DNA of 64,000 nt, taken from positions 12,725-76,724 of the forward strand of contig JANQLL010000205.1 of NCBI GenBank assembly GCA_028280605.1, given 5' to 3'. The notes under the pieces were generated by a model that searched no databases, had not been told where the DNA came from, and saw only the letters and a list, made by a program, of their open reading frames with translations. The stretch comes from Candidatus Gastranaerophilales bacterium. Lineage in GTDB: Bacteria; Cyanobacteriota; Vampirovibrionia; Gastranaerophilales; JANQFW01. The position numbers and the translations under genes are program-made. This document shows positions 1,377 through 64,000 of the stretch, piece by piece; positions within the stretch are counted from its first letter, which is position 1, and each line of letters starts with the position of its first letter.

Positions 1377-1458
1377 AATTAATACAAAGCTTAAACAATC
1401 TTAACATTGTTTTAATTAAAACATGCCTTATCAGAGAAAATTATTAAAATTATTTATT

Positions 1459-1527
1459 ATACTGCTCATCAGTTAAGTTTCAGATTACTCTTAGGTATAA
1501 GCCTATAAATTATTTTGAGTAAGTATA
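1459..1527 (+). repeat. Dispersed TTTCAGATTA hairpin element, degenerate copy a
   Basis: tatactgctcatcagttaagtttcagattactctt matches the left end of the best copies (48412.., 63811..). The right half is decayed. It lies inside the putative 5' UTR of ORF 1600. Confidence 0.6.
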
Positions 1528-8359: not shown

Positions 8360-8518
8360 ATGAAGAAAATGACTGATACAAATTTAGACACAGAAATGTC
8401 TATGTTGGATGAAATCTTAAGTATATGTAAGAATCAGCATCCTGTTATGATCTGGTGGTTTGCTGCAGTTTCTTTAAGTATGTTTTCTATTTACTATCTT
8501 TTATTAACAAAATTATAA
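8360..8518 (+). CDS. Small tail-anchored membrane protein candidate (52 aa, below the ORF-track cutoff)
   Basis: AAGGGG SD 7 nt upstream of the ATG at 8360. Translation is MKKMTDTNLDTEMSMLDEILSICKNQHPVMIWWFAAVSLSMFSIYYLLLTKL, with one C-terminal TM helix. Confidence 0.35.
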   Translation: MKKMTDTNLDTEMSMLDEILSICKNQHPVMIWWFAAVSLSMFSIYYLLLTKL

Positions 8519-8527
8519 TTATACGAA

Positions 8528-8616
8528 CTCAAAAATACTTTTTAGATTATTCAAGCGTGTCAAAGGTAATAAAATAGTCTAGACTCTGAAAAGAGTAATA
8601 TTAAATTTAATTTTGA
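8528..8616 (-). repeat. Dispersed TTTCAGATTA hairpin element, copy b (reverse orientation)
   Basis: ctcaaaaatactttttagattattc...ctctgaaaagagtaatattaaatttaatt aligns with copies c, d and g. Confidence 0.75.
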
Positions 8617-8801
8617 ACCAGAATAAAAATAAAGCTTTATTATTTAAATAATAAGGCTTTTTAGCTCTAATTCTATAAAATAGGGGAATTTAAAATTTTA
8701 TAATTTTATATAAACTATCCTGTATACTCCCTCTAAAATATTTTTCAGGTTATTAAATCGATATTTATTTTAGGGTCGGTATAAGAATGCAGGAGTTTTT
8801 T

Positions 8802-9866
8802 ATGCTTAAATATATAAATTTAATATTTGTATTCATAAAAAAATATAAAAAAGTAATCTTAATGATCCCTGTTGCTTTTTTAGGGCTAATGATTATTTTA
8901 TATATTTTCAAATATGTACTAAAGCCTACAATTATTCTAGAATTCAAAGACTCTCAAATTGTCCCGAAAGGCACAATTGTGGAGTTTAAAGGACATAAAA
9001 TCAGTAAAATATTTAAAATAAAACTTAGCGATGATCTAAAAAAGACGTATGCTTATTTTAGGCTAAAATCTATGTTTATGAAGTTGCCGAGAAATATTAT
9101 AGCAATATTAAAAATCAACAAAAACACAGGTAAAGAGTTTATTCAGTTAAGTCTGCCAGAAAAACCATCTAAAAAAAAGTTAAGGCATAATATTGTAATT
9201 CAAGCAGAAGCCGCACCGAGCCTTGAAGCTTTTATAGAAGAACAATTGGAAAAAGGCACACTCGACACGGTTAGTGGTGACTTTACAGAGACTATGACAA
9301 ATATTAATAAAACTACCAGAAAAGTTGAACAGGCTGTAGATCAGATAAATTCTATAATCAAAGAAAATCGTAAGAATATAAATATAACAATAAGTGCTTT
9401 AACCAGGACTGCTCAAAATATAGAAAAAGTATCTAAAAATATTGATTCTATTACTAAAGATAAAAAGCTCAAAGACAATATAATAGATATCACTACAAAT
9501 GTTGAGTCATTTACTGAGAATATTGATCAAATAACTATGAATGTCGATAAACTAACCGCCTCTAAAGAATTGGCTATGACTATGAAAAACTTAGATGATA
9601 CTATGGAAAGCTTAAAATACACGTCTATTAATTTAAGAAATATAACCAGGAATGTTGATTGTGCCACCAAAAATTTGCATGTTACTTTTGGCAAGGTAAA
9701 TACCCTGCTAGATAACGCAAATATAACTACTAAAAATCTGTATTGCCTGAGTAATGGAGCTCAAATTATGCTAAGCAAGCGTTTTATACTAATGAGAATG
9801 TTATTTGGCAAGCCTGGTAGAGTATTTGAGGAGCAAAGACAGCATTGTATTTGTCCACCATACTAA
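8802..9866 (+). CDS. MlaD/Mce-domain-like membrane protein with C-terminal coiled-coil repeats
   Basis: AGGAG SD favours the ATG at 8802. An N-terminal TM helix is followed by a beta-rich segment (PTIILEFKDSQIVPKGTIVEFKG) and repeated helical NI..I motifs, as seen in MlaD-family proteins. Confidence 0.5.
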   Translation: MLKYINLIFVFIKKYKKVILMIPVAFLGLMIILYIFKYVLKPTIILEFKDSQIVPKGTIVEFKGHKISKIFKIKLSDDLKKTYAYFRLKSMFMKLPRNIIAILKINKNTGKEFIQLSLPEKPSKKKLRHNIVIQAEAAPSLEAFIEEQLEKGTLDTVSGDFTETMTNINKTTRKVEQAVDQINSIIKENRKNINITISALTRTAQNIEKVSKNIDSITKDKKLKDNIIDITTNVESFTENIDQITMNVDKLTASKELAMTMKNLDDTMESLKYTSINLRNITRNVDCATKNLHVTFGKVNTLLDNANITTKNLYCLSNGAQIMLSKRFILMRMLFGKPGRVFEEQRQHCICPPY

Positions 9867-26796: not shown

Positions 26797-27978
26797 CTAT
26801 AAAGTTTCTTTTAATATCGCAATTGCCTTATCAACTTCTTCTTTATTAATTATTAAAGGCGGTACAAACCTTATAACATTTGACCCAGCCCCTACTAATA
26901 AAAGACCATTATTTAAACATTCCAAAACAACATCAGCAGCTGGCTTATCAATCTCTATACCCTGCATAAGCCCAACACCTCTAATATCTTTTATACATTT
27001 TTTTTCTTTTTTTAGGTTTTGCAAGCATTCGCTTAAGTATTCACCTATTTCCCAGGTACTTTTTAATATATTTTTATTTAAAAGAAAATCTAATACCGTA
27101 AGCCCCGCCGAACAAGCTAAAGCATTACCGCCAAATGTACTTGCATGATCTCCTGGCTGAAAAGCCTGAGCCACATTTTCTATCGCAAGAATTGCGCCAA
27201 TTGGACAACCTCCACCTAAGCCCTTTGCTAAAGCAATAACATCAGGCGCAACATCATAATATTCATAAGCAAACAAATATCCTGTTCTGCCCATTCCGCA
27301 TTGTATCTCGTCATAAGCAAGAACTATATTGTTTTCATCACAAATTTTTCTTACTTCTTGTAAATATTCTTTTGATACAGGTCTTATACCACCTTCACCC
27401 TGTATTGGCTCTAAAATTATCACACATGTATTACCAGTTACTTGCTCTTTTAAAGATTCTATATCATTAAATTCAGCATATTTTATGCCAGGTAGAAGCG
27501 GTGTTAAACCTTCTTGGTATTTATCTTGTCCTGTTGCTGTGATAGCCCCATAGGTTCTACCGTGGAAAGATTGCTTGATAGTAATAATTTCAAAACAGTC
27601 ATCCCCTTTATATTTTTTACCGTATTTTCTACATAATTTTAAAATCCCCTCAATTGCTTCCGCTCCGCTGTTACAGAAAAATACCTTGTCAAAAATACTA
27701 TTTTCAACAAGGCACTTAGCTAATTCTATTTGAGGTTTATTCCAATATAAGTTTGAAATATGGATTAATTTCCCGATTTGGTCCGTCAGGCTTGAAATAA
27801 AATCCTTATTATTATAACCAAGTGTATTAACAGCAATACCAGATACAAAATCAAGGTATTTTTTACCATTTGTATCAGTGACATAGCAGCCATCTGCGCT
27901 TTCTATTGTAATAGGAAAGCGCTTATATGTATTCATTACGTATTTATCACCAAGTTCAAGCCAATTTTGCTCAGACAT
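26797..27978 (-). CDS. argD: Acetylornithine aminotransferase
   Basis: Class III aminotransferase motifs (SGAEA, DEIQCGMGRTG, LAKGLGGG) in arg operon context. Confidence 0.9.
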   Translation of the reverse strand: MSEQNWLELGDKYVMNTYKRFPITIESADGCYVTDTNGKKYLDFVSGIAVNTLGYNNKDFISSLTDQIGKLIHISNLYWNKPQIELAKCLVENSIFDKVFFCNSGAEAIEGILKLCRKYGKKYKGDDCFEIITIKQSFHGRTYGAITATGQDKYQEGLTPLLPGIKYAEFNDIESLKEQVTGNTCVIILEPIQGEGGIRPVSKEYLQEVRKICDENNIVLAYDEIQCGMGRTGYLFAYEYYDVAPDVIALAKGLGGGCPIGAILAIENVAQAFQPGDHASTFGGNALACSAGLTVLDFLLNKNILKSTWEIGEYLSECLQNLKKEKKCIKDIRGVGLMQGIEIDKPAADVVLECLNNGLLLVGAGSNVIRFVPPLIINKEEVDKAIAILKETL

Positions 27979-35390: not shown

Positions 35391-35922
35391 AATTAGCCTT
35401 CCTCTTTTTTTTACTCTCTTTAGTTATATCAATTTTGCAATTTGCATATTAAAAACATGGCAAAATACCGCCTCAAATAATACTAAACATTATTCAATGC
35501 AAAGATTTAAAATCTAATTTTAAAAATAAAGCAAAATTTTAAATTTCTAACACAAACTAAGGCGATTTTAATTTAGCAAAAATGCATATTTTCTGTTTCT
35601 ATACTTCTCATCAAATTACTCTTTAGAATAAACTTACAAAAAATATTTCTTAATTAATCCGGCTTTATAACAGACTCTTTAATAGTAAGTATATTTTTGA
35701 AAATCATTCTATTGTTAATTAAATTAAAGCCCTAGTTTATTAATGTTGATAGATAAATTTTTATATCTTAACAAAAGTTCAAAATTGAATTAAAAAGCAG
35801 TAATAATACAATACAATTTTTGAATGATGACTTCTAATTGCTTATGACTACAATTTAATATAGGAGGTTAGTTTTATCTTACAACCTAAAGAATTAATAA
35901 GAGATCAAGGATATCTACTTTA

Positions 35923-43116: not shown

Positions 43117-43223
43117 TTATACAACTTAATAAAAGTTTATCATTTTCATTTGATTAAGTTTCAATTTCAAAGTATATTAAATATGTTCGAGTGTCAATAA
43201 TAAAATAAACATGAATATAGCCA

Positions 43224-43319
43224 CTCTAAAATACTTTGTCAGATTATTCAATCGCATTCATTAAAATTAATGAAATAGTCTATACTCTGAAAAGAGTAGC
43301 CTGTAATTTAATTGATGAG
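43224..43319 (-). repeat. Dispersed TTTCAGATTA hairpin element, copy c (reverse orientation)
   Basis: ctctaaaatactttgtcagattattc...ctctgaaaagagtagcctgtaatttaattgatgag. Confidence 0.8.
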
Positions 43320-43339
43320 AAATAAAAGTTTACATAATT

Positions 43340-43942
43340 ATGAATGATAGAGTTAAAGAATTTTACAAAATACGTAACATTTTAGACAAAAAGGACGGGG
43401 TAATATCTTTCCCTACTGATACTGTCTGGGGGGTTGGATGTAGAATCAGTAATACTAGTGCTGTTGAAAAAATTTATGGCTTAAAAGGCCGTGATAAATC
43501 TAAACCCCTTATTTTATTAAGTAGTGATGTTGAAAGTTTATTGCCTTATATAAAGAATATTACGCCAAATGCAAAAAAAATTATAGTAAAATATTTTCCC
43601 GGGGCTGTTACTTTGGTTTTGGCCAAGAGTGACAAAGTGCCTGACTACATTACATCCGGTATGAATACAGTAGGAATTAGAGTGCCTGATTGTTTACCCT
43701 ATAAAGACATGGTTAACCAGTGTGTTGAAGAGAAAGTTCTTGCTACGACCAGTGCTAATTTATCAGGGCAGGTGGCTGGCATTAATTATAATGATGTTTA
43801 TAATTCTGTTGGTGAGTATGTTGATTATATTTATAATCCTGAGTATCAAAATATAAAAGAACTTGAGTCTACTGTTGTTATGGTGGATGAAGCTGATAAT
43901 GTAAAAGTTTTAAGGCAGGGAGCTGTTAAGATAGAATTATAG
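43340..43942 (+). CDS. tsaC: L-threonylcarbamoyladenylate synthase (YrdC/TsaC type)
   Basis: 200 aa with FPTDTVWGVGC, KGRDKSKPL and TSANLSG motifs. Confidence 0.85.
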   Translation: MNDRVKEFYKIRNILDKKDGVISFPTDTVWGVGCRISNTSAVEKIYGLKGRDKSKPLILLSSDVESLLPYIKNITPNAKKIIVKYFPGAVTLVLAKSDKVPDYITSGMNTVGIRVPDCLPYKDMVNQCVEEKVLATTSANLSGQVAGINYNDVYNSVGEYVDYIYNPEYQNIKELESTVVMVDEADNVKVLRQGAVKIEL

Positions 43943-47253: not shown

Positions 47254-47502
47254 CTAATACTTTATTTCTACTTGTGGGATTGTGTCAAAAACATCTTTAA
47301 TTGTGTCTTTGAATGCAGGTGTATTCACATAGCCTTCCGCTTTTTGAGCAATTGATTTATCTTTAAATAATATAACTATTTTTTCTGAGGATATCTCTAT
47401 TGGTTTTGTAACACTTTTTAGTATCATTTTTACTGCGATATTATTTATCTTGCTTAAAAGTAATTCCCAGTCATGATTTAGATTGCCTGTTATTTTAGAC
47501 AT
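47254..47502 (-). CDS. Hypothetical small protein (82 aa)
   Basis: AAGGAGG SD directly upstream of the ATG. No family recognised. Confidence 0.5.
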   Translation of the reverse strand: MSKITGNLNHDWELLLSKINNIAVKMILKSVTKPIEISSEKIVILFKDKSIAQKAEGYVNTPAFKDTIKDVFDTIPQVEIKY

Positions 47503-47540
47503 TTTTACCTCCTTTGATTCTTAAATATTAACTATGTTAA

Positions 47541-47637
47541 CTAAAAAATACTTTTCAGATTATTTAATTGTTTAAAAGTTAATAAAGTAAACTATTTTCT
47601 GAAAAGAGTAATCCAGAATTTAATTGAGTACCTGTAT
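47541..47637 (-). repeat. Dispersed TTTCAGATTA hairpin element, copy d (reverse orientation)
   Basis: ctaaaaaatacttttcagattatttaattg...ttctgaaaagagtaatccagaatttaattgagtacctgtat. Confidence 0.85.
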
Positions 47638-48037
47638 AAAAAGTTTTATTTTAAACTTAACTTCAATAACAATTTAAAAATTCAATTATTTTGCTTGGAT
47701 AATACATAGTATAAAACATAGCTTCTAGAATTAAATTTGCTACCTGTATAATAGTTTAGATGTACAGGTAAAATTTTTTAGTACCTGCTTATATTATTGT
47801 ACTTGAAAAGAAAAAAAAGCGATGTTATACAGAAACTAAAAACTTTTAAATTATTGTATAGGCTAAATAAGTCATCGTAGCTTATATAAAAAAAATACTC
47901 TCTAAGTTACCTATAAATTATGTAGATTAAAAAAAAATTTTTATTAAAATTAATTCGATAGCTGGAGTTGCAATTTTAAAACTATAAGTTATAATATAAA
48001 ACGTGTTATGAAGTTAATTCTGAAAGGTAAGACTTAA

Positions 48038-48316
48038 ATGAATAAGGAAGAATTAGTACAAGAGATAGCTAAAAAAGCTAAGTACACTCAAAAAGAAGTT
48101 GCTGAAATATTAAAAGTAACATTAGAAGTTGTAGAAAAAACTGTTGCTAAAGGTAAAAAAGTTACTTTAGTTGGATTTGGTACATTCCAAGCTAAAAAAA
48201 GAGCTGCAAGAACTGGCAGAAATCCACAAACTGGCGCTGAAATTGAAATACCTGAAAAAACAGTTCCTACTTTCTCTCCTGGTAAAGCATTTAAAGAGAG
48301 AGTTAATAAAAAGTAG
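48038..48316 (+). CDS. hup: DNA-binding protein HU
   Basis: MNKEELV...GFGTFQAKKRAARTGRNPQTGAEIEIP is a canonical HU sequence. Confidence 0.95.
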   Translation: MNKEELVQEIAKKAKYTQKEVAEILKVTLEVVEKTVAKGKKVTLVGFGTFQAKKRAARTGRNPQTGAEIEIPEKTVPTFSPGKAFKERVNKK

Positions 48317-48374: not shown

Positions 48375-48408
48375 ACTGCCTCCTATTATTAAAGAGGCAG
48401 TTTTTTTA
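48375..48408 (+). terminator. hup intrinsic terminator
   Basis: CTGCCTC-ctattattaaa-GAGGCAG followed by TTTTTTT. Confidence 0.8.
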
Positions 48409-48411
48409 TTC

Positions 48412-48504
48412 CGGTTCCCAATTAAATTTCAGATTAATCTTTTCAGAGACTAGATTATTTTTTTACTTTTAACCAGATTGAATAATCTGAAAAGTATTTT
48501 AGTG
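48412..48504 (+). repeat. Dispersed TTTCAGATTA hairpin element, copy e (forward orientation)
   Basis: cccaattaaatttcagattaatcttttcagagactag...gattgaataatctgaaaagtattttagtg. Confidence 0.85.
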
Positions 48505-48567
48505 ACGGTATAACTGGTGTTTTATTTTATAGCATTTCCTACACTGCTCATTTTCAGAGCAATATAG

Positions 48568-49260
48568 TTAGAAAGACCTAAGCGGACTTGGACCGCCATA
48601 CATTGGACTTGAATAACCTGATTGAGAACCACCCATTGGATATCCGCCTCCTGCCGATTGTAATGATGAAAAACTCAGACCATGTTGAGGTGGTCCCCAA
48701 CTACCAGTTTCAATATAATTTCTTATTTGTGCAGCTTCTTGCATTTGGGAAGCTTGATGTATTTGTTGTTGTTGAGCGTAAGCAGCTTGCATTTGTTGCT
48801 GTTGTTGCATCATTGCAGTCTGTTGTTCTGCATATGACTTGCCAAAAATCGCCTGCCCCATCTTATTACCTAGCCAATCGCCTCCCATGCCCAAGGTCAT
48901 ACCTGTGCCCATAGATGCAAAATTGGCTTTTGTAAAAAAGCCTCCTTTACCTCCAGGTACATATCCCATCGCAATAGAACCACCCAACGTTGCCATACCA
49001 ACTCTACAAAATGACCTGCCTAACTGAGCACCAAAATCTCCATTCTGATAGGCCTGTATTAATGCAGGAATTTCAAATGCAACAGGGAGAGCCATAGCAA
49101 ATACGGGAGTATTCATGAAACCTTGATTTACTTTGGTTAAAAAACCTCCTCCATTTGTCGCAGCCTTTGATACAGATTTAGTTGCTGCAGATCCGGCACT
49201 CTTTCCGGAGCCTTTCAATAAATCATCAATAGTTGTGGAAAATATCTTTCCTATTCCCAT
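48568..49260 (-). CDS. Hypothetical Gly-rich membrane protein with poly-Q and G/S/Y-rich C-terminus
   Basis: 230 aa. Glycine-zipper-like segments (GMATLGGSIAMGYVPGG, MGTGMTLGMGG), a MMQQQQQMQAAYAQQQQ run, and a GGGYPMGGSQSGYSSPMYGG tail. Confidence 0.6.
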   Translation of the reverse strand: MGIGKIFSTTIDDLLKGSGKSAGSAATKSVSKAATNGGGFLTKVNQGFMNTPVFAMALPVAFEIPALIQAYQNGDFGAQLGRSFCRVGMATLGGSIAMGYVPGGKGGFFTKANFASMGTGMTLGMGGDWLGNKMGQAIFGKSYAEQQTAMMQQQQQMQAAYAQQQQIHQASQMQEAAQIRNYIETGSWGPPQHGLSFSSLQSAGGGYPMGGSQSGYSSPMYGGPSPLRSF

Positions 49261-53204: not shown

Positions 53205-53270
53205 TATATTGCTCATCAATTAAGTTCAGGATAACTCTTCACAGAGTAAAGCCTGATTTAATCGTATAGA
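53205..53270 (+). repeat. Dispersed TTTCAGATTA hairpin element, degenerate copy f
   Basis: tatattgctcatcaattaagttcaggataactcttcacagagtaaagcctgattta. Confidence 0.55.
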
Positions 53271-54224: not shown

Positions 54225-55535
54225 TTAAGCATTTTTGAACCAAACATCGTCAACTCTTTGTTCTTTTCCTGCGCCATCCGTATATGTTCCAACTTGTCTA
54301 TGTTGAACATCACCGGTAGCAGCTTGTTCTTTATATCCTTTTGTATTAATTGTTTTTATATCATTTCCAAGTGCTTCAGGGTTAGTAACGTTATCTTCGC
54401 TAATTAAGCCTAATTCACCTTTTCCGTCTTTTTGCAGTGCTTGGTTAAACAATTGAGCGTTAACTACTCCTTTGTCATCAATAACATCCAGCCCCGATGC
54501 TTTTTCTGCACTCTGAGCAACTTGATTTAACGCATCAAAGCCATTTGCGGCCTCAACAGGCTTGTTTGTATACGGATCAACTGTTTTATCTCCAAATACT
54601 TCTGTTCCGTCAATTTTACCGTTTTTATTTACATCGCCCATTGTAAGCATTTTGTCACCGCCAACAGCCGCACCATCAGCTTTGCCATCTCCATTTATAT
54701 CAACGCCTTGCCCCTGTTGGGCACTAACTTTACCATCTTTATTTCTATCAAGTATTAACGGTGAACCTGTATCATAATCGCCATTTACTGTTGATACACC
54801 ATAACTGTCAGTACTGACTGTGCCATCATCTACTTCTAAATTGTTATTTCCATCTTCTACTTTTACAACTGTTTTATAGTCATCATCCTTTCTATGTTTG
54901 TACAAATGATATCTGTTATCATCTTTTCCTTCTGCAATAAGATATTCAGGCGCACCATTTTTAGCATCTCCGGTTAAATCGTTGCTTAGCGCATATTCTT
55001 TTTCATCTCCGGTAAGCTTGTCTATCAACGGACTATATCCCGTGCCAGTAGTTGTAGTATCGTTAGTAGTACCACCAGTCGTTGTATCAGTACCAGTTCC
55101 TGTTGTTCCTCCGCCGGTTGTTGTATCGTTACCGGTACCTGTTGTACCTCCACCGGTTGTTGTATCATTACCGCTTATCGTACTGTTGCCACCAATTCCG
55201 CCGAATAAGGCACTTAAATCAAAATTACTACCTGAGTTTACACTTGTATTTCCTTGAACAACATTAGTTCCACCCAGATTTGTATTTGATTGATTTTGAA
55301 ATAATGAATCACCAATGCTATTATTTGCTTGAACAACATTAGCTCCGCCAAAATTTGTATTCAATTGATTTTGAAATAATGAACCTAATGAGTTTCCAAT
55401 ACTATTGTTTGCTTGAGCAACATTAGCTCCGCCAAAATTTTGATTCATTTGGTTAAGACTTTTATTTAATTGTTGAAAACTTGACTTTAGCTTATTGGAA
55501 TATAACTTAGATAAGTCCCCCATAGAAATAGTCAT
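54225..55535 (-). CDS. Array paralog P1: repeat-rich N-terminal half plus conserved C-terminal EF-hand-like Ca-binding domain
   Basis: 436 aa with no signal peptide and a GAGGAGAG SD. The C-terminus SPLILDRNKDGKVSAQQGQGVDINGDGKADG...GDVNKNGKIDGTEVFGDKTVDPYTN...VDDVWFKNA is shared with P2-P4. Confidence 0.85.
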   Translation of the reverse strand: MTISMGDLSKLYSNKLKSSFQQLNKSLNQMNQNFGGANVAQANNSIGNSLGSLFQNQLNTNFGGANVVQANNSIGDSLFQNQSNTNLGGTNVVQGNTSVNSGSNFDLSALFGGIGGNSTISGNDTTTGGGTTGTGNDTTTGGGTTGTGTDTTTGGTTNDTTTTGTGYSPLIDKLTGDEKEYALSNDLTGDAKNGAPEYLIAEGKDDNRYHLYKHRKDDDYKTVVKVEDGNNNLEVDDGTVSTDSYGVSTVNGDYDTGSPLILDRNKDGKVSAQQGQGVDINGDGKADGAAVGGDKMLTMGDVNKNGKIDGTEVFGDKTVDPYTNKPVEAANGFDALNQVAQSAEKASGLDVIDDKGVVNAQLFNQALQKDGKGELGLISEDNVTNPEALGNDIKTINTKGYKEQAATGDVQHRQVGTYTDGAGKEQRVDDVWFKNA

Positions 55536-55926: not shown

Positions 55927-57045
55927 TTAAGCATGTTTAAACCAAACATCATTAACTTTTTGCTGGTTTCCTTGAGTATCTATATATGATCCAAGTTGTC
56001 TATGTTGAATATTACCCGTAGCATTTTGCTCTTTATAGCCTTTTGTATTTATATATGCAACATCTCCAAGAGCTTCAGGCTTAGTAACGTTATTGTCACT
56101 TATTAAGCCTAAATTTCCTTTTTTGGCTTGCTTAAGAGCTTGGTCAAGCTTTTGAACATCCACTTTTCCATTTGGATCTACAATGTTCAGTCCAGTGGCT
56201 TTTGAAGCACTTAGAGCAACTTCTCTGAGTGCTTCAAAGCCGTTACGTGCATTAATAGGTTTATTAGTGAACGGATTTACAGTTTTATTTCCAAATACTT
56301 CTGTTCCATCTATCTTACCGTTGCCATTTCTGTCACCTAAGGTTAACATCTTATCTCCGCCGCTAGCTGCACCATCAGCTCTGCCATCTCCGTTTATATC
56401 AACGCCCTGTCCATGTCGAGCACTAACTTTACCATCTTTATTTGTATCAAGTATTAATGGAGAACCGGTTTTAGAGCCTTGGCCTGCTTTTGATACGCCG
56501 TGTTCATCAGTTGTGATATTTTTAGGCTTTAACTTATTACTTCCTTTTGGCAATTTGGTTACAGCCTTATACTTTCCACCATTACCTTTATATAAGTGCT
56601 GCTTACCATCTTTGCCTTTAGCTATAAGATACAGAGGCTCACCTTTGTTATTCTTAGCCGTTAAGTCAACGCTTAAAGCGATTTCTTTTTCTTTTGCGCT
56701 AAGTTGATCTATTAACGGGCTATGTCCAGGTTTAGGTTTTGCAGGCTCTGTTGGACTTGGTTTAGAACTAGGTGCCTTGTGGTTACTGCCACAAAGTAAA
56801 TTTATGATGATATTTATATTTATGTTAGTAAAATCTAATTTTGCAGGAGGTTCTTTAGCTCCTGATAAATTACCAATATTTATAGTTGGTTTAAATACAT
56901 TTGTGATTCCCGCATTTTTGTTAAAAAGTGTTTTGCCGCTACCATAGCTACTATTACTTTGATTAACATTTTTTCCCCCAATATTTTGATTTAGCTGTCT
57001 CACAATTGATGAGGGATCAGCAATATTGATCCTGGTGATACTCAT
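55927..57045 (-). CDS. Array paralog P2
   Basis: 372 aa. The family N-terminus is MSITRINIADPSSIVRQLNQNIGGKNVNQ, with the boxes FKPTINIGN and NININIIINLLC. The conserved C-terminal Ca-binding domain ends VNDVWFKHA. Confidence 0.85.
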   Translation of the reverse strand: MSITRINIADPSSIVRQLNQNIGGKNVNQSNSSYGSGKTLFNKNAGITNVFKPTINIGNLSGAKEPPAKLDFTNININIIINLLCGSNHKAPSSKPSPTEPAKPKPGHSPLIDQLSAKEKEIALSVDLTAKNNKGEPLYLIAKGKDGKQHLYKGNGGKYKAVTKLPKGSNKLKPKNITTDEHGVSKAGQGSKTGSPLILDTNKDGKVSARHGQGVDINGDGRADGAASGGDKMLTLGDRNGNGKIDGTEVFGNKTVNPFTNKPINARNGFEALREVALSASKATGLNIVDPNGKVDVQKLDQALKQAKKGNLGLISDNNVTKPEALGDVAYINTKGYKEQNATGNIQHRQLGSYIDTQGNQQKVNDVWFKHA

Positions 57046-57281: not shown

Positions 57282-58550
57282 TTAAGCATTTTTGAACCAA
57301 ACATCATTAACTTTTTGTTTTTGTCCGCTGCCGTCTGTATAAGATCCAAGCTGTCTGTGTTGAACATTACCGCTAAGCGGACCGCGATCTGTATATCCTT
57401 GAGTATCTACGGACTTTACATCACCAAGAGCTTCAGGTCTTGTAGTGTTATTTCCGCTAATCATTCCTAATTTACCCTTTTTAGTAGCCTGAAGAGCCTG
57501 ATTAAGTTTTTGCATATCAACTTTACCGTTTGGATCAACTATTTGCATGCCTGTAGCTTGTTGAGCACTTTGTGCAACTTTTCTAAGCGCTTCAAATCCA
57601 TTCTTTGCATTAATAGGCTTGTTAGTGAACGGATCTACCGTTTTATCCCCAAAGACTTCTGTTCCATCAATTTTACCGTTTCCATTTCTATCGCCTAAAG
57701 TAAGCATTTTATCTCCGCCGGTAGCTGCACCATCAGCTCTGCCATCGCCATTTACATCTACGCCCATTCCATGTTGCGCACTAACTTTACCGTCTTTATT
57801 TGTATCAAGTATTAATGGTGAACTTGTTTTTGAACCTGAGCCGGCTTGCGATACACCATGTTTATCAGTTGTGATATTTTTAGGTTTTAATTTTCTGCTG
57901 CCATCAGGTGCACTTCCAACAGGTCTGTACTTTCCAGGTTCCTTTTGGTGATACAAACGATTCTTGCCATCTTTACCTTTTCCAATAAGATATTTAGGCT
58001 TTCCATCAGGTCCTTTTTCTTTTAAATTAAGACCTCTGGCAAGCTTTCTATCTTGTGGACTAAGTTTATTTAATAACGGTGAGGTTCTTCTGCGTCTTCT
58101 AATAGTTCTGGGTTTATTTGTTGTACCGGTTGGAGATCCTGTATTACCCGTATTACCCGTATTACCGGTATTGCCAGTATTACCTGTATTACCAGTTTGG
58201 TCTTTAAGACCTTTACAAAGTAAATTTATAATTAAATTTATATTTATAGTTGGGGATTTACCATCACCTGATTGATTTGGTAATCCTCCAGTATTCTTAG
58301 AAGTATCATTATTATTTGTTAATCCGCCAATATTTATAGAGGGCGAATTACCTACACCTGCTTGATTTTGCAATCCTCCAATGTTTATAGTCGGCTTAAA
58401 TACATTTTTGAATTTAGGTCCTCTATGCTTATGACCGTGAGCCTGATTATGATCAGGACCGACAATATTTTGGTTAACAGTCTTGCCCCCAGTATTTTTA
58501 TTTATCAATTTTACTAAAGGCGATTGATTAGCCGTTGAAATATTAATCAT
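57282..58550 (-). CDS. Array paralog P3
   Basis: 422 aa. It has the family N-terminus, a (GNT)x6 linker and an RRRR patch. The C-terminal domain is nearly identical to that of P4. Confidence 0.85.
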   Translation of the reverse strand: MINISTANQSPLVKLINKNTGGKTVNQNIVGPDHNQAHGHKHRGPKFKNVFKPTINIGGLQNQAGVGNSPSINIGGLTNNNDTSKNTGGLPNQSGDGKSPTININLIINLLCKGLKDQTGNTGNTGNTGNTGNTGNTGSPTGTTNKPRTIRRRRRTSPLLNKLSPQDRKLARGLNLKEKGPDGKPKYLIGKGKDGKNRLYHQKEPGKYRPVGSAPDGSRKLKPKNITTDKHGVSQAGSGSKTSSPLILDTNKDGKVSAQHGMGVDVNGDGRADGAATGGDKMLTLGDRNGNGKIDGTEVFGDKTVDPFTNKPINAKNGFEALRKVAQSAQQATGMQIVDPNGKVDMQKLNQALQATKKGKLGMISGNNTTRPEALGDVKSVDTQGYTDRGPLSGNVQHRQLGSYTDGSGQKQKVNDVWFKNA

Positions 58551-58896: not shown

Positions 58897-59418
58897 TTAA
58901 GCCATTTGAGGAAATATATTTATATTTACATTGTTATCCCGGCAGGCTTTTGCAGGCAAGTTTTGTGGCTGAGAATCACTACAAAGGCAAGGGGAATTTT
59001 GAAATATATTTATATTTACATTGTTACCCTGACAGGCTTTTGAAGGGGAAGTTGGGGAATTTTGAGATTGTATATTATTATTAGTGCCAGATCCATTTTG
59101 AAATATATTTGCATTATCATTATTGTTAGTATTATTACTGCCGTTATTATTATTAATATTGATATTATTATTGTTTACATTAAAAATATTATTAATATCC
59201 TGTTTTGGAGTTGATTTGCTTGGAGTAGAAAGACCTTTAATAAGATTCTTCAATCCTGATTTTAATGGTGAATTAGCAGGCTTTTTCTTGGGTTTAAATA
59301 TATTTTTACCACTAAAAACAGGTTTCTTTCTAGTAGGCTTTTTTCGCCTTGGAGGTCTTTTTCTGCCCATAAATTTCTTAAAAATGTTTGTATTAAAAAC
59401 TTTCTTGCCACCGCACAT
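58897..59418 (-). CDS. Array short member S1: basic N-terminus, Asn-rich, repeated NIF/NINI boxes
   Basis: The start is set at MCGGKK (GAGGAGAA SD 6 nt upstream). KKPVFSGKNIFKPKKKP resembles the family FKNVFKP box. It has no C-terminal Ca-binding domain. Confidence 0.6.
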   Translation of the reverse strand: MCGGKKVFNTNIFKKFMGRKRPPRRKKPTRKKPVFSGKNIFKPKKKPANSPLKSGLKNLIKGLSTPSKSTPKQDINNIFNVNNNNININNNNGSNNTNNNDNANIFQNGSGTNNNIQSQNSPTSPSKACQGNNVNINIFQNSPCLCSDSQPQNLPAKACRDNNVNINIFPQMA

Positions 59419-59676
59419 TAATATTCTCCTCAATCTCTCTGTTTATTGCTAACGCTATTATTAATTATTATTTATGGCATGATTAATGCCAATCATATGC
59501 TAACATTGTTAATTAATATTATTTTTATAATATTGACACTAATAACATGCCAATATTAATATTGAATATGCTAAAATTATTATTAATACTCTCCTTGATA
59601 ATATTTCTATCTCTTATTAGAAGTATGCTAACATTATATTAATATTGTTTATGTAACTCTCTATATCTTTAAAATA

Positions 59677-59721
59677 CTTGCTTATTTATATAAAAACAAA
59701 CTAATCTATAAAATTGCTATA
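59677..59721 (-). promoter_or_regulatory. Paralog-array upstream motif, copy 5 (upstream of S1)
   Basis: cttgcttatttatataaaaacaaactaatctataaaattgctata. Confidence 0.55.
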
Positions 59722-59725
59722 CTAA

Positions 59726-59822
59726 CTCAAAAATACTTTTCAGATTATTCAATCGTGTTAAATCTGATAAAATAGGCTATATTCTGAAAAGAGTAATCAA
59801 AAATTTAATTGAGAACCTGTAT
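59726..59822 (-). repeat. Dispersed TTTCAGATTA hairpin element, copy g (reverse orientation)
   Basis: ctcaaaaatacttttcagattattcaatcg...ttctgaaaagagtaatcaaaaatttaattgagaacctgtat. It abuts motif copy 5. Confidence 0.85.
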
Positions 59823-59892
59823 ATATAGAATATTTTTTGAATTGATAAATTTTAATAAAAAACAGCTTTAAATAAAAAATAAAATAAAGCTC

Positions 59893-59921
59893 AAAAAAAT
59901 CCTCCCAAGAATAGGAGGATT
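59893..59921 (-). terminator. Terminator of P4
   Basis: AATCCTCC-caagaat-AGGAGGATT with a flanking A7 run. Confidence 0.75.
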
Positions 59922-59955
59922 ATATATTATAAATTAAGCACGTTATTGATTTTAA

Positions 59956-61218
59956 TTAAGCATTTTTGAACCAAACATCATTAACTTTTTGTTTTTGTCC
60001 GCTGCTGTCTGTATAAGACCCAAGCTGTCTGTGCTGAACATTACCGCTAAGCTGGCCGCGATCTGTATATCCTTGAGTATCTATGGATTTAACATCACCA
60101 AGAGCTTCAGGTCTTGTAGTGTTATTGCCACTAATCATTCCTAACTTGCCTTTTCCGGCTGATTCAAGAGCTTGATTAAGTTTTTGCACATCAACTTTAC
60201 CATTAGCATCAACTATTTGCATACCTGTTGCCTGTTGAGCGCTTTGTGCTACTTGTCTGAGCGCTTCAAATCCATTTTTTGCATTAATAGGTTGGTTTGT
60301 AAACGGATCAACAGTTTTATCTCCAAATACTTCAGTTCCATCAATTTTACCATTGCCGTTTCTATCACCCATTGTAAGCATCTTATCTCCGCCAACAGCT
60401 GCGCCATCAGCTCTGCCATCTCCGTTAACATCCACGCCCATACCATGTTGAGCACTAACTTTACCGTCTTTATTTGTATCAAGTATTAATGGAGAACTCG
60501 TTTTAGAACCTGAGCCGGCTTGCGATACACCATGTTTATCAGTTGTGATACCTTTAGGCTCTAATTCATTACTGCCGTCCGGCGCTTTGTTAATAGCTTT
60601 GTATTCACCTGGCTTTTCTTGCTGGTACAAACGAGGTTTACCATCTTTACCTTTACCAATAAGATATTTAGGCTTGCCATCAGACCCTTTTGCTTTTAAA
60701 TCAAGCCCCTTAGCTCTATTTCTATCTTCCGGACTAAGCGACTTTAATAGCGGTGAACCACTACTTACAGGTCGTCTCGTAGTTACAGGCTTTTTAGCAA
60801 TGTCACTTGTTGAGCCTGTATCACCTGCTGAGCCACTACCACTTGTTGATGATGGTTCTTTACCTTTCAGAGCCAATATTAAATTTATAATTAAATTTAT
60901 GTTTATAGTAGGTGAACCGCTTGAATCTGATTGATTTGTTGCTCCACCAGAATTTTGAGTACCATTATTATTTGTTAATCCCCCAATACTAATAGTTGGT
61001 TTAAATACATTTTTGAAAACAGGTTTTCTACCTGTATGATTAAGCTTGTGTCCGCCAATATGCTTGTACTTAGGTCCGACATGCCTATGTTTGTGACCAA
61101 CATGATTGTGATTATTCCCATTGATAGTTTGACTAATATTATTGCCCCCAGTATTTTTATTTATTTGTTTCACGTTTGAAAATGGGGCAGATGAAATCTG
61201 AATTCTAGCTGCGCTCAT
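59956..61218 (-). CDS. Array paralog P4
   Basis: 420 aa. It has the family N-terminus (MSAARIQISSAPFSNVKQINKNTGGNNISQ), an His-rich patch, the ININLIINL box and the conserved C-terminal domain. Confidence 0.85.
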   Translation of the reverse strand: MSAARIQISSAPFSNVKQINKNTGGNNISQTINGNNHNHVGHKHRHVGPKYKHIGGHKLNHTGRKPVFKNVFKPTISIGGLTNNNGTQNSGGATNQSDSSGSPTININLIINLILALKGKEPSSTSGSGSAGDTGSTSDIAKKPVTTRRPVSSGSPLLKSLSPEDRNRAKGLDLKAKGSDGKPKYLIGKGKDGKPRLYQQEKPGEYKAINKAPDGSNELEPKGITTDKHGVSQAGSGSKTSSPLILDTNKDGKVSAQHGMGVDVNGDGRADGAAVGGDKMLTMGDRNGNGKIDGTEVFGDKTVDPFTNQPINAKNGFEALRQVAQSAQQATGMQIVDANGKVDVQKLNQALESAGKGKLGMISGNNTTRPEALGDVKSIDTQGYTDRGQLSGNVQHRQLGSYTDSSGQKQKVNDVWFKNA

Positions 61219-61250
61219 TAATATTCTCTCCTCTTCAGTCTCTTTTTAAT

Positions 61251-61395
61251 ACTTCTCATCAGTAAAAATTCAGATTACTCTTTAGAATGAGCTTCTAAAA
61301 AGTAAAATTAGCCATTTCACTTTTTAACGCTCCCGCATCGCAATTCAGAGGCTAGTTTATTCGATATTGAATAATCTGAAAAATACATTAGTAAG
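61251..61395 (+). repeat. Dispersed TTTCAGATTA hairpin element, copy h, with a roughly 55-nt internal insertion, inside the P4 5' UTR region
   Basis: tacttctcatcagtaaaaattcagattactcttt...[insertion]...caattcagaggctagtttattcgatattgaataatctgaaaaatac. Confidence 0.7.
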
Positions 61396-61472
61396 TTAGT
61401 AGTATTGACCTTAATCTCTCCGGTAATATTGTAAGTTTTTCATCTCTCTTTCATATACTCTCTTTTTAAAAA

Positions 61473-61517
61473 CTCGCCTATCTATATAAAAACAATAAAG
61501 AATAAAGAATTGCCATA
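61473..61517 (-). promoter_or_regulatory. Paralog-array upstream motif, copy 6 (upstream of P4)
   Basis: ctcgcctatctatataaaaacaataaagaataaagaattgccata. Confidence 0.55.
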
Positions 61518-61555
61518 TAAAATATTTTTTAAGTCAATAAATAATAAATAAATGT

Positions 61556-61585
61556 CTAAAAAATCCTCCTATTTCTAGGAGGATT
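61556..61585 (-). terminator. Terminator of P5
   Basis: AATCCTCCTA-tttc-TAGGAGGATT with a flanking A run. Confidence 0.75.
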
Positions 61586-61626
61586 ATATATAGTAAATTA
61601 AGCACGTTAATATTTATTGATTAAAA

Positions 61627-62385
61627 TTAAGCTAACTTAAACGAAATACTATTACCGCCATCATTATTAGCGCCAAAAGTTGGCTGTGTATTTTTAGGAG
61701 TCGTCTTTACTGTTGATACTCCGTGTTGATCAGTTTGGATGTTTGGATTTTGACCTAACTGTAAACGTTGTTTTTGACCATTTGCATCTCTTGATACTGT
61801 TTTATACTTCCCCGGCTGCCTTCGACTCTGTTTAAATAAACGAGGCTTATCATCTTTACCATTTGCTATAAGGTACATAGGCTTGCCATCTTGTCCTTTA
61901 GCAGTAATATCATTATTTTCAGCAAACTTTTTGTCAGCTCCGTTTAAAAGGTTAAGCATTGGACTTTGTCCGGTTTGTTTTGTTGCGGCTTGTTTACCGG
62001 TAGTTGTAGCAGCAGGACTTGTATTAGAAGTTGCACTTGCCGGCTGTGCAGCACCTTTACCCTTCAACTTCTTACATAATAAATTTAAAATTAAATTTAT
62101 ATTTATATTAGGTGAACCACTTGAGCCTGATTTTGTTGGAGAACCTGGCTTTGCAGACGGGTCGGATTGTAAGGGTGAACCTCCCAAATTAATGGATGGC
62201 TTAAATACGTTTTTAAAAATAGGAGCACCCGACTTGGGAGCTTCTTTACCTGAAGTATTTTTGGCAAGAGTTTTGCCAGCAGGCTTTTGATTAATATCTA
62301 ATTTATTCCTATTGTCCTTTCCGCCATTTTTATTTAACTGTTTAACTAAGGGGTTAGGTAAAACACTTGTTTTTGCTGCACTCAT
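61627..62385 (-). CDS. Array paralog P5, truncated form lacking the Ca-binding C-terminal domain
   Basis: 252 aa. It shares the N-terminal boxes (PIFKNVFKPSINLGG, NININLILNLLCKKLKGKG, SPMLNLL..., DGKPMYLIANGKDDKPRLF, QTDQHGVSTV) and then ends where the other paralogs continue with SPLILD... Confidence 0.75.
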   Translation of the reverse strand: MSAAKTSVLPNPLVKQLNKNGGKDNRNKLDINQKPAGKTLAKNTSGKEAPKSGAPIFKNVFKPSINLGGSPLQSDPSAKPGSPTKSGSSGSPNININLILNLLCKKLKGKGAAQPASATSNTSPAATTTGKQAATKQTGQSPMLNLLNGADKKFAENNDITAKGQDGKPMYLIANGKDDKPRLFKQSRRQPGKYKTVSRDANGQKQRLQLGQNPNIQTDQHGVSTVKTTPKNTQPTFGANNDGGNSISFKLA

Positions 62386-62457
62386 TAATACTCTCCTCTT
62401 TATATATATTTAATAAAGACCTCAATCTCATTCTATTATTTGTTAATTAAATATTTT

Positions 62458-62685
62458 CCCTGCGCTAAACGCAAAAATTTTCTTTATTAATACTTAAAAT
62501 GCCTCTGTAGTAATTGCAGAATTTTTCTTTATTAATACTTAAAATGTCTCTATGGTAATAGCAGAATTTTTCTTTATTAAATACTGTAACTTCTTTGTGT
62601 TAATCACAAAGTTTCTCATTATTAATACTATAATTTCTATGTGGTAACAGTGGAATTATTTATTATTGGTAGATATTTTATGGGA
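62458..62685. repeat. About 5 tandem copies of a roughly 45-nt unit in the P5 5' UTR
   Basis: Each unit is a short hairpin (tgcg-ctaaa-cgca, ctat-ggta-atag, tgtg-ttaat-caca ...) followed by (g)aatttttctttattaatacttaaaatg. Confidence 0.75.
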
Positions 62686-62726
62686 TAGAATTATTATTTA
62701 TCTTTCTATTATATTTTTATTAAAAA

Positions 62727-62771
62727 CTCGCTTATTTATATAAAAACAATTAAGAATATAAAATTGCTATA
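62727..62771 (-). promoter_or_regulatory. Paralog-array upstream motif, copy 7 (upstream of P5)
   Basis: ctcgcttatttatataaaaacaattaagaatataaaattgctata. Confidence 0.55.
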
Positions 62772-62888
62772 TAAAATATTTTTTATTTATAGTTTTCGCA
62801 AAAAAAAGCCCCCTTACTTAGGAGACTTTATATAACTAATCATGTTATTTATAAATTAAGCTTACTTTTAATTTAATATCACTTGAAA

Positions 62889-63626
62889 CTAATTCACCAT
62901 TATTTTTTCACCGGTCTTAGGATCTTGTTCTACCCAGCTATTAGCTTTATTCCATGCTGGCAGATTGCCGGATGATGTATCTTTTGGTGTATTACCTGGA
63001 AGGGATGTGCTAACAATAGAGTCCTGTGGAGTATCAGATGTACCTGTAGGTGTAGCTTTTGAAGTATCACTTACGGGCTTTTTAGTGCTGGATGGATCTT
63101 GTGATGGACTGCCGCCCTTACCTTTTAATACATTAAGAATTTGTTTTAAGAGTTTAATAATAGTCATTTGACCTTTACCACTACCACAATTATTATTTCC
63201 GTTAAATATATTTTGATTGGCATTTATTGGAGAACTACCGTCACTGTTTATAACTTGACTTGCATTAACCGGTGAGCCGTCACTACCACTATTTATAACT
63301 TGATTTGCATTTATTGGTGAGCCGTCACCGCCGCTATTTATAACTTGATTTGCATTAACCGGTGAACCGTTACCACCGCTATTTATAACCTGATTTGCAT
63401 TAATCGGTGAACCGTTACTCTTAATTACTTCTGAACTTGAGCCGTTTGGTGACTGCTGTGTCTTTTTGATAAATCCTGGACCTGATTGAGTTACGGACTT
63501 GCCTGTAGGAAATATACTTTTGCTGCCTGGTGTTTTATCTGAAGAGCCTTCTGTAATTCTTTTAGTTGTTCTTTTGTGCCAATATTTTGTTTTAAACTTA
63601 AATTTAAATTCTGATTTTTTACACAT
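62889..63626 (-). CDS. Array short member S2: basic N-terminus plus 16-aa GSP(I/V)NANQVINSGG repeats
   Basis: 245 aa with a GAGGAGAG SD and an MCKK start like S1. It has 4-5 tandem 48-nt repeats. The MTIIKLLKQILNVLKGKGG box resembles the family ININLIINLLCKKLKGKG box. Confidence 0.65.
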   Translation of the reverse strand: MCKKSEFKFKFKTKYWHKRTTKRITEGSSDKTPGSKSIFPTGKSVTQSGPGFIKKTQQSPNGSSSEVIKSNGSPINANQVINSGGNGSPVNANQVINSGGDGSPINANQVINSGSDGSPVNASQVINSDGSSPINANQNIFNGNNNCGSGKGQMTIIKLLKQILNVLKGKGGSPSQDPSSTKKPVSDTSKATPTGTSDTPQDSIVSTSLPGNTPKDTSSGNLPAWNKANSWVEQDPKTGEKIMVN

Positions 63627-63810
63627 ATGACTACTCTCCTCAATGCATTTATTCTGTAATGTACTAAACGTATTGTTAAATCATTATGCTATTTACTTAA
63701 CTGGTAATATTTATTGATAATGCTATACTAAATTATGATTAATGTATGGCATTTAAACTATACAAAAACCTTTTAATAACAGGTAATAGATAAATTTAAA
63801 AAGATATATA

Positions 63811-63912
63811 TACTACTCATCAATTAAATTTCAGATTACTCTTTTCAGAGAGTAGTTTATTTTAATAACTTTAACTCGATTTAATAATCTGAAAAGTATT
63901 TTAGAGGGAGTA
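63811..63912 (+). repeat. Dispersed TTTCAGATTA hairpin element, copy i (best forward copy)
   Basis: tactactcatcaattaaatttcagattactcttttcagagagtag...cgatttaataatctgaaaagtattttagagggag. TATACTACT occurs at both edges. A further degenerate mini-copy follows at about 63925..63975. Confidence 0.85.
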
Positions 63913-64000
63913 TACTACTGATCTACTAAATTGCTCATTTAAACTTTTTAATAATCAAAAAAGTATTATAAGTGTTAGTATAAATGCTTTTTAAGTGGTA

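Follow-up and report, generated by a model that had tools for sequence, protein, structure and literature searches.

An abundant, probably TA-duplicating MITE family in gut Gastranaerophilales

Positions 63811-63912 of the DNA analysed here, a stretch of 64,000 nucleotides that we call the window, raise the question of what kind of entity recurs between genes in so many similar, hairpin-forming copies. A sequence-only reading had described an intergenic element of roughly 95 nt, and had considered a MITE- or REP-like mobile element as well as a family of structured RNAs or protein-binding insulators. We conclude, with a probability of about 0.85, that the family is a MITE that duplicates TA on insertion. 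Bacterial MITEs are defined by terminal inverted repeats (TIRs), TA at the termini and a duplicated target, and their mobility is tested by comparing empty with filled sites (PMC5896051, PMC3184786). The element has every structural feature of this class: it is small (well under a limit of about 400 bp) and non-coding, it has TIRs and a target duplication, and its copies are dispersed and polymorphic.

The repeat family is real. In the window, the arm motifs TTTCAGATTACTCTTTTCAGAG and AATAATCTGAAAAGTATTTTAGAG have five and six matches, respectively, with up to three mismatches, far above the expectation of 0.00 from 100 dinucleotide-preserving shuffles. An nhmmer profile made from six copies recovered six full copies, and partial ones at the places first named. 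The six full copies had E-values of 1e-24 to 1e-29 (plus strand, 63807-63918 and 48405-48516; minus strand, 59714-59825, 8517-8627, 43212-43326 and 47530-47640), and partial matches were placed at 53205, 8722, 61249/61344, 1457 and 63940. Copies are dispersed in both orientations, as had been noted, and the family is indeed multi-copy, although the total is 14 copies or remnants rather than 11, or about one per 4.6 kb (Table 1). Six are full length, five of them exactly 106 nt and one 111 nt. One further copy is a 158-nt long form, and the others are internal-deletion derivatives or fragments.

Table 1. Copies of the element in the window, the parts of copy i, and a neighbouring set of tandem paralogues
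Feature	Position	Strand	Remark
Full short-form copy i	63809..63914	+	TA + 102-nt element + TA
Copy i, left TIR	63809-63841		
Copy i, box B1 TTACTCTTTTCAGAG	63836-63850		
Copy i, box B2 GATTTAATAATCTGAAAAGTATTTT	63878-63902		
Copy i, right TIR	63882-63914		
Internal-deletion derivative, 72 nt, both termini	63911..63982	+	tandem with copy i, TATA common to both
Long-form copy, 158 nt	61247..61404	+	with 62-nt hairpin module
Full short-form copy, 106 nt	59718..59823	-	between two co-directional genes
Degenerate internally deleted copy	53205..53268	+	left TIR recognisable, right end reduced
Remnant, 27 nt (TACACTGCTCATTTTCAGAGCAATATA), both termini	48540..48566	+	
Full short-form copy	48407..48512	+	directly after hup terminator
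Old solo left-TIR remnant	47722..47750	-	approximate bounds
Full short-form copy	47533..47638	-	27 nt upstream of start of small ORF 47254-47502 (-)
Full copy, 111 nt	43216..43326	-	small internal insertions, degenerate left terminus
Left-part fragment of long form	35600..35649	+	right end absent
Internal-deletion derivative, 61 nt, both termini	8723..8783	-	
Full short-form copy, 106 nt	8520..8625	-	
Deletion derivative of long form, 70 nt, both termini	1458..1527	+	
Tandem paralogue ORFs	54225-55535, 55927-57045, 57282-58550, 59956-61218, 61627-62385	-	

Several copies prove to be something other than they had seemed. The extra sequence in the copy at 61247, described as an insertion of about 55 nt, is genuine but represents a regular long-form subfamily with a conserved 62-nt hairpin module. 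The supposed fragments at 1459 and 8722 keep both termini, and are therefore internal-deletion derivatives rather than truncations; the copy at 53205, whose right end is degenerate, may likewise be such a derivative. The occurrence of TATACTACT at both edges of copy i, offered as a possible 9-bp target duplication, is simply the start of the tandem deleted copy. The intergenic position of the copies is borne out, with overlap of a predicted ORF in just two of 75 element matches across the window and related loci. The start codon of ORF 59956-61218 (-) lies about 30 nt downstream of the left end of the long-form copy, the derivative at 8723 has its left terminus 3 nt from the predicted ATG of ORF 8787-9866, and the 111-nt copy sits between tRNA-Ala and ORF 43340-43942. 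Rfam and ARAGORN searches of the window returned only two tRNA genes.

The boundaries of the element were drawn from an alignment of 44 full copies of the window and related genomes, each with 40 nt of flank, in which similarity begins at TATAC and ends at GTATA. The short form spans 106 nt including a flanking TA on each side of a 102-nt core, and its consensus is TA-TACTGGTTCTCAATTAAATTTCAGATTACTCTTTTCAGAGAnTAGTTTATTTTATTAGnTTTAACACGATTGAATAATCTGAAAAGTATTTTTGAGTTAGTA-TA. The interval 63811-63912 is thus exactly the element without its flanking TA dinucleotides, and with them the unit becomes 63809-63914. The TIRs are imperfect and about 33 bp long (TATACTGGTTCTCAATTAAATTTCAGATTACTC … GAATAATCTGAAAAGTATTTTTGAGTTAGTATA), with TA outside each. 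When the first 33 nt of the consensus are set against the reverse-complemented last 33 nt, 24 of 33 positions agree without gaps, among them the outermost TATAC and a core of 10 nt, TTTCAGATTA; the best-kept parts are the outermost TAC.../...GTA and the inner core TTTCAGATTA/TAATCTGAAA. Across 38 copies, 72.6% of cells pair in this register and only 35-41% do so after the partner column is shifted by 1-3, so the inverted repeat itself is real. TA is present on both sides in 29 of 38 aligned full copies.

The short-form consensus contains neither an ATG nor a conserved ORF, and the 12-16-codon frame in the long-form module differs in length from copy to copy. The long form measures 158-171 nt (about 165 nt) owing to its conserved internal module of 62 nt, itself a hairpin, and at least 17 copies in related genomes share it with the window copy. 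Many shorter copies, in the window and in relatives (L013 and L002), are internal deletions that retain both termini. The G+C content of the element is 23.5%, compared with 32.6% for the window. Whole copies have a mean identity of 77%, the same within as between genomes, against which boxes B1 and B2 are about 96% conserved, in a sample where fetching related loci by an exact 20-mer of the right TIR inflates conservation of that region in the MAG copies. In a set corrected for this fetching, conservation still reaches about 95% in TTACTCTTTTCAGA, in GATTGAATAATCTGAAAAGTATTTT and at the terminal bases, and the remainder is variable. Such uneven conservation is consistent with cis-sites needed in transposition, and it could also reflect use or selection by the host. 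One old copy, L058:5236-5400, has an extra G+C-rich stem-loop (GACCCTTGGGTC) inserted centrally, indicating that modules other than the 62-nt one can nest in the element.

Empty sites in relatives had been proposed as the check on mobility, and they were found, with a single TA at the junction. Orthologous loci were located via the HU protein (48038-48316), which is identical in both related MAGs and one Logan contig. The copy at 47533-47638 is absent from the orthologous hup loci of GCA_028282645.1 and GCA_028277625.1 (L066 and L067), and the copy at 48407-48512 from the orthologous loci of both MAGs and the Logan contig (L066, L067 and L068), the Logan contig being aligned at this second site only. 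Upstream of hup, the filled window reads ...ATATTAAC-TA-[TGTTAAC...CCTGTA]-TA-AAAAGTTTT and both empty MAGs read ...TTAAT-TA-AAAAGTTTT, the left and right flanks being alignable; the junctions are TTAAT-TA-AAAAG when empty and TTAAC-TA-[element]-TA-AAAAG when filled. Downstream of hup, the window reads ...GCAGTTTTTT-TA-[TTCCGG...GACGGTA]-TA-ACTGGTG, while L066 and L068 read ...GCAGTTTTTC-TA-ACTGGGA and L067 also lacks the element; here the junctions are TTTTTC-TA-ACTGG and TTTTTT-TA-[element]-TA-ACTGG, respectively. Nowhere in the three orthologous hup loci did the search return an element match.

One TA at the empty site and a TA on each side at the filled site are what a 2-bp TA target duplication predicts, a pattern that sequence alone does not separate from the insertion, beside a TA, of an element that ends in TA. 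The reverse case also occurs, since L028:3360-3530 holds a long-form copy where the window is empty at about 31200. This gives two clean filled/empty cases and a third that is consistent. The window and L031 differ in the spacer upstream of ORF 58897-59433, where each has its own insertion at its own place: L031 lacks a copy at the conserved downstream flank of the 59718..59823 site, and its long-form copy lies about 250 nt off, within that spacer. At each of the four positions preceding the left TA, T makes up 57-65% of bases; the right flank lacks a mirror preference, and such an asymmetry is unusual for a symmetric TA-targeting enzyme. Together, the TIRs, TA flanks, precise filled and empty sites, dispersed copies, deletion derivatives and assembly breaks uphold the MITE-like mobile element of the sequence-only reading.

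The distribution of the family was examined by a genome scan with a 20-mer of the right arm, in one genome per species, which listed at least 65 stretches. Nearly all of the matches listed come from two Candidatus Gastranaerophilales MAGs, PL23b_bin.96 (JANQHM01) and PL23b_bin.2 (JANQFW01), bins in which contamination is possible. Many are no more than about 100 nt from the end of a contig, which is where a repeat that breaks assemblies should fall. Other taxa among the matches listed show bare 20-mers, the sole exception being a 1.6-kb contig of the same study, placed there in another bin. A profile census beyond the window, also proposed at the outset, found more than 100 further copies in 443 kb of MAG loci, often at contig ends; over the window and the listed loci together (507 kb), nhmmer gave at least 114 matches, 43 of them full length. 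Exact 20-mer searches returned no match in a viral contig collection and 20 in JGI metagenomes, all of them chance matches with no surrounding element, and blastn against plasmid and phage records found nothing similar. An exact-protein look-up for more orthologous loci, using a 420-aa paralogue and ribosomal protein S12, found neither on record.

Long stretches of the window share 82-86% nucleotide identity with both MAGs, which are about 80-85% identical to each other, and this divergence implies that three related species of the Cyanobacteriota/Melainabacteria carry the family. It belongs to a narrow clade of gut Melainabacteria, the order Gastranaerophilales. Some copies occupy orthologous positions in two species. 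The 27-nt remnant at 48540 is also at the orthologous position in L066 and L068, and the left-TIR remnant at 47722 is in the same place in all three species. Shared positions, and an identity of 77% both within and between genomes, indicate that the family predates the species splits and also moved after them. Its activity has therefore been long, with some insertions common to species about 80-86% identical in DNA and others lineage-specific.

Several observations concern the neighbourhood of the copies. The window region 26797-27978 corresponds to a place where two contigs of MAG bin.96 (L038:1-136 and L028:1-101) end in MITE copies on either side, and in L038 just the last 25 nt or so of the coding end of gene 26797-27978 can be recognised. 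The cause could be a rearrangement or deletion associated with the MITE, or a mere assembly break. Upstream of hup, about 200 nt (approximately 47840-48037) are essentially identical in the window, both MAGs and the Logan contig, which, set against 80-86% identity in coding DNA, suggests a strongly constrained leader or promoter region. Between 54225 and 62385 on the minus strand lie five tandem paralogues of about 250-436 aa, with MITE copies between or beside several of them. Two were scanned and gave no Pfam family, and a homologue is present in L031. Upstream of ORF 58897-59433, at 59496-59633 (-), three TGTTAGCATA-like motifs are spaced 57-71 nt apart. The motif is also repeated in the orthologous L031:300-700, its count across the window is not above chance, and the set may be an operator array. 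Low-complexity proteins often adjoin MITE copies, as at 48568-49260 (-), L034:5267-6666 and L054:3440-5031. Among these neighbours are Q-rich, GEEGGG-repeat and Met/Gly-rich proteins, and the window ORF 48568-49260 has no Pfam family.

How might such an element move? The TA duplication and the analogy with the RUP elements of Streptococcus pneumoniae lead us to infer a transposase of the IS630/Tc1-mariner type, and an IS630/Tc1-type enzyme acting in trans is the likely mobiliser. Such a trans-acting transposase, in all likelihood a DDE enzyme, would bind the conserved inner boxes and cut the element at its termini, presumably by cut-and-paste chemistry. The element would then integrate at a TA dinucleotide in AT-rich intergenic DNA, duplicating the TA. 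Afterwards copies decay through point mutations and, very often, through internal deletions sparing both ends. Any effect of the copies on neighbouring genes is one that we infer.

In about 640 kb examined there was no autonomous element or transposase gene with matching ends. An all-against-all blastp of 489 ORFs for multi-copy ORFs yielded no transposase, and neither did Pfam on 20 window ORFs. The ORFs lying between inverted ends, inspected by eye, included none that was transposase-like; among them are apparent RsgA, RuvB and RseP genes. Inspection of short MITE-ended contigs likewise revealed no transposase, although one of them carries an apparent recA. A tblastn search with a Mos1 mariner query found nothing.

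Beyond movement, the host may have put the element to use. The reading that survives best next to the MITE itself, and does not conflict with a MITE origin, is co-option by the host: copies would serve as mobile promoters or 5'-UTR modules, and B1, B2 and the terminal TATA would stay conserved for that reason. Each end would form an outward CTGAAA-N16-TATAnn, its -10 box completed by the flank, like the 'Black' promoter of Correia elements. We consider this unlikely, even though both ends hold CTGAAA, then 16 nt, then the terminal TATA, and a promoter scan flags CTGAAA-16-TATACT at 63889-63916. Many ends also lie 15-55 nt from start codons in unrelated genes, and nothing but a ribosome-binding site intervenes; judged by N-terminal sequence, such genes include apparent ileS, MTA phosphorylase and dCMP deaminase genes. 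In an old insertion shared by L006 and L058, the right half and the flank up to the gene start are 100% identical between species whose coding DNA is about 80-85% identical.

The conserved boxes stand out against the 77% overall identity, and Correia elements are documented to form promoters in this way (PMC2649163). However, uneven conservation would also arise if propagation were limited to copies whose transposase-binding sites are intact. The -10 box is completed (T at position 6) at 26 of 71 ends that face gene starts and at 18 of 45 that face gene ends (p = 0.84), and promoter-like matches in AT-rich regions are no commoner than in shuffles. Nor does placement favour regulation, since the spread over spacer types tracks available intergenic length. 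With ORFs called simply as longest frames, spacers with both neighbours known comprise 32 co-directional, 16 divergent and 4 convergent cases, mirroring available intergenic bases of 63:28:8% in the same order; no preference for a spacer type was seen beyond this. Orientation is almost unconstrained. The ratio of ends facing gene starts to ends facing gene ends is 42:14 for the left end against 38:33 for the right (32:13 against 39:32 in a second count). The left end faces gene starts somewhat oftener than the right, which is suggestive only, as the ORF calls are crude and some loci are orthologous.

A combination of the two ideas would make the family an orphan TA-duplicating MITE, with no transposase of its own in the genome, whose inner boxes and TATA the host has kept as outward promoters or 5'-UTR modules before housekeeping genes. 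This we hold to be rather improbable. If true, it would mean that Correia-like regulatory repeats had arisen independently in non-photosynthetic gut relatives of the Cyanobacteria.

Very improbable is the proposal that the copies are a family of structured sRNAs or cis-regulatory hairpins, whose functional unit would be the stem TACTCTTTTCAGA/TCTGAAAAGTA and the U-run after it, serving for instance as an sRNA, a terminator or a target of RNase III. Conservation within the element is highest in the two arms, and the complementarity claimed for them as a stem of 11-13 bp stands, with 94.7% of cells paired; read from the sequence, a T-run follows the 3' arm. Yet this stem is not thermodynamically unusual. 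No pair in it is changed on both sides, so that the proposed check for compensatory substitutions returned zero, and its paired cells equal the shuffled value (88.7 against 88.6%). Eight copies folded singly on both strands gave z-scores of -2.15, -3.16, -0.46, -0.96, -0.01, +0.93, -0.94 and -1.39, mostly indistinguishable from shuffles. The RNAalifold consensus of 38 copies reaches just -0.31 kcal/mol, with six invariant pairs and no covariation. In the 12 long copies the consensus fold is more stable (-8.85 kcal/mol) and contains one pair covarying from G-C to A-U, but that pair splits two subfamilies and may represent a single event.

Co-directional gene pairs hold 22 antisense and 10 sense copies, an imbalance that would suit a polar effect of copies in sense; against this, copies occur in both orientations by gene starts as well as gene ends, and a terminator scan leaves them unflagged. 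No Rfam family matched at gathering thresholds or at E up to 1, and a permissive Rfam search over 59600-64000 found nothing at the copies. Structured RNAs or insulators with a variable core are thus unsupported by Rfam, RNAalifold, pair counts and fold z-scores alike. The TIR helix behaves in the same way, with 72.6% of cells paired as observed and 72.2% once the 3' letters have been permuted among sequences, so its pairing arises from column composition and not from co-variation. Apparent compensatory changes in the inner hairpin (AGCT/AGCT and AGTT/AACT) vanished on a fixed-register count. We conclude that the copies can form hairpins merely as a consequence of having inverted repeats.

Barely credible, finally, is single-strand transposition, in which a REPIN mobilised by a RAYT, or a palindrome-associated IS200/IS605 derivative, inserts 3' of a T-rich target without duplicating it: the asymmetric flanks (left 57-65% T, right unbiased) would suit it, and sequence does not tell a duplicated TA from insertion after ...TTTTA by an element ending in TA, but the ends are inverted copies over about 33 nt including the outermost TATAC/GTATA, the T-run is merely a 57-65% preference with no fixed target of 4-5 nt, the element is AT-rich and long, unlike REP sequences, no strong subterminal hairpins appear on reading the ends, and no Y1 transposase was seen in the roughly 640 kb looked at. 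Inverted ends are the signature of DDE transposons, whereas the ends of IS200/IS605 elements are not inverted repeats.

Among known elements, the closest analogues of this MITE family are RUP and the Correia elements, RUP in size and behaviour and the Correia elements in architecture. The duplication made by RUP is reportedly TA, a result attributed to Oggioni and Claverys in 1999. Both RUP and the family described here seem to stem from old bursts and to move slowly now. RUP measures 107 bp, against 106 nt here, and both have TIRs and a target duplication (PMC3049150, PMC3184786). The TIRs of RUP resemble those of IS630-Spn1 (PMC3049150), so that a resident IS630-family element with similar TIRs is known for RUP, whereas none was found for the Gastranaerophilales family. 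The two share no sequence similarity and inhabit different phyla. RUP is also over-represented between convergent genes (PMC3049150), while the Gastranaerophilales family tracks intergenic length.

With the Correia elements (CREE) of Neisseria, the family shares TIRs that start TATA(G/C), a target duplication, and the lack of an encoded or identified transposase (PMC2649163). Length classes arise in both through an internal module (about 105 and 155 bp in CREE, 106 and about 165 nt here), and neither end is lost in the short deletion forms. Copies are frequently placed just 5' of genes, and each end offers a -35-like box with a partial terminal -10 (TATA). In contrast, promoter activity, an IHF site and RNase III processing are features of CREE (PMC2649163), and the Gastranaerophilales element failed its one indirect promoter test; the hosts are unrelated. 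The 26-bp Correia repeat TATAG[CT]GGATTAA(CAAAAA/ATTTAA)(TCAGGAC/CCGGTAC) was not recovered, and TIR homology is marginal, with a best local alignment score of 10 (p = 0.014 among eight comparisons, the others p >= 0.036).

Cyanobacterial MITEs (Nezha, the MaeMITEs and the Anabaena MITEs) belong to the same element class and the same broad lineage, the Cyanobacteriota/Melainabacteria group, and there, too, the evidence for mobility comes from comparing filled with empty sites at orthologous places between related species (PMC3184786). Nezha differs in measuring 130-170 bp and in having TIRs in common with ISNpu3 (PMC3184786), whereas no parent IS and no sequence relation to Nezha were found for the Gastranaerophilales family. 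The 'REP-like' label has to be dropped. REP and REPIN sequences are short G+C-rich palindromes, arranged as inverted pairs and associated with a RAYT gene, without a duplication, and the present element has 23.5% G+C, TIRs of 33 bp and a duplicated TA. A palindrome-associated element derived from IS200/IS605 was also rejected as a class, the ends being inverted repeats and the left T-run just 57-65% per position.

The family is real, abundant and formerly or currently mobile, and as a TA-duplicating MITE it is of a well-known type and conceptually standard. Its practical weight lies in the assembly, binning and annotation of Gastranaerophilales genomes, as it makes up about 2% of the window, stands beside many gene starts and breaks the MAG assemblies of relatives. 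Shared and private insertions also offer a marker for strain typing and for dating lineage splits. To our knowledge, no MITE family has been described in Melainabacteria, and the literature searched held none. If the parent transposase is truly absent, the family would be a second natural case of the problem posed by Correia elements, namely how such elements move. With it, the Melainabacteria join the groups that carry a high-copy TA-duplicating MITE.
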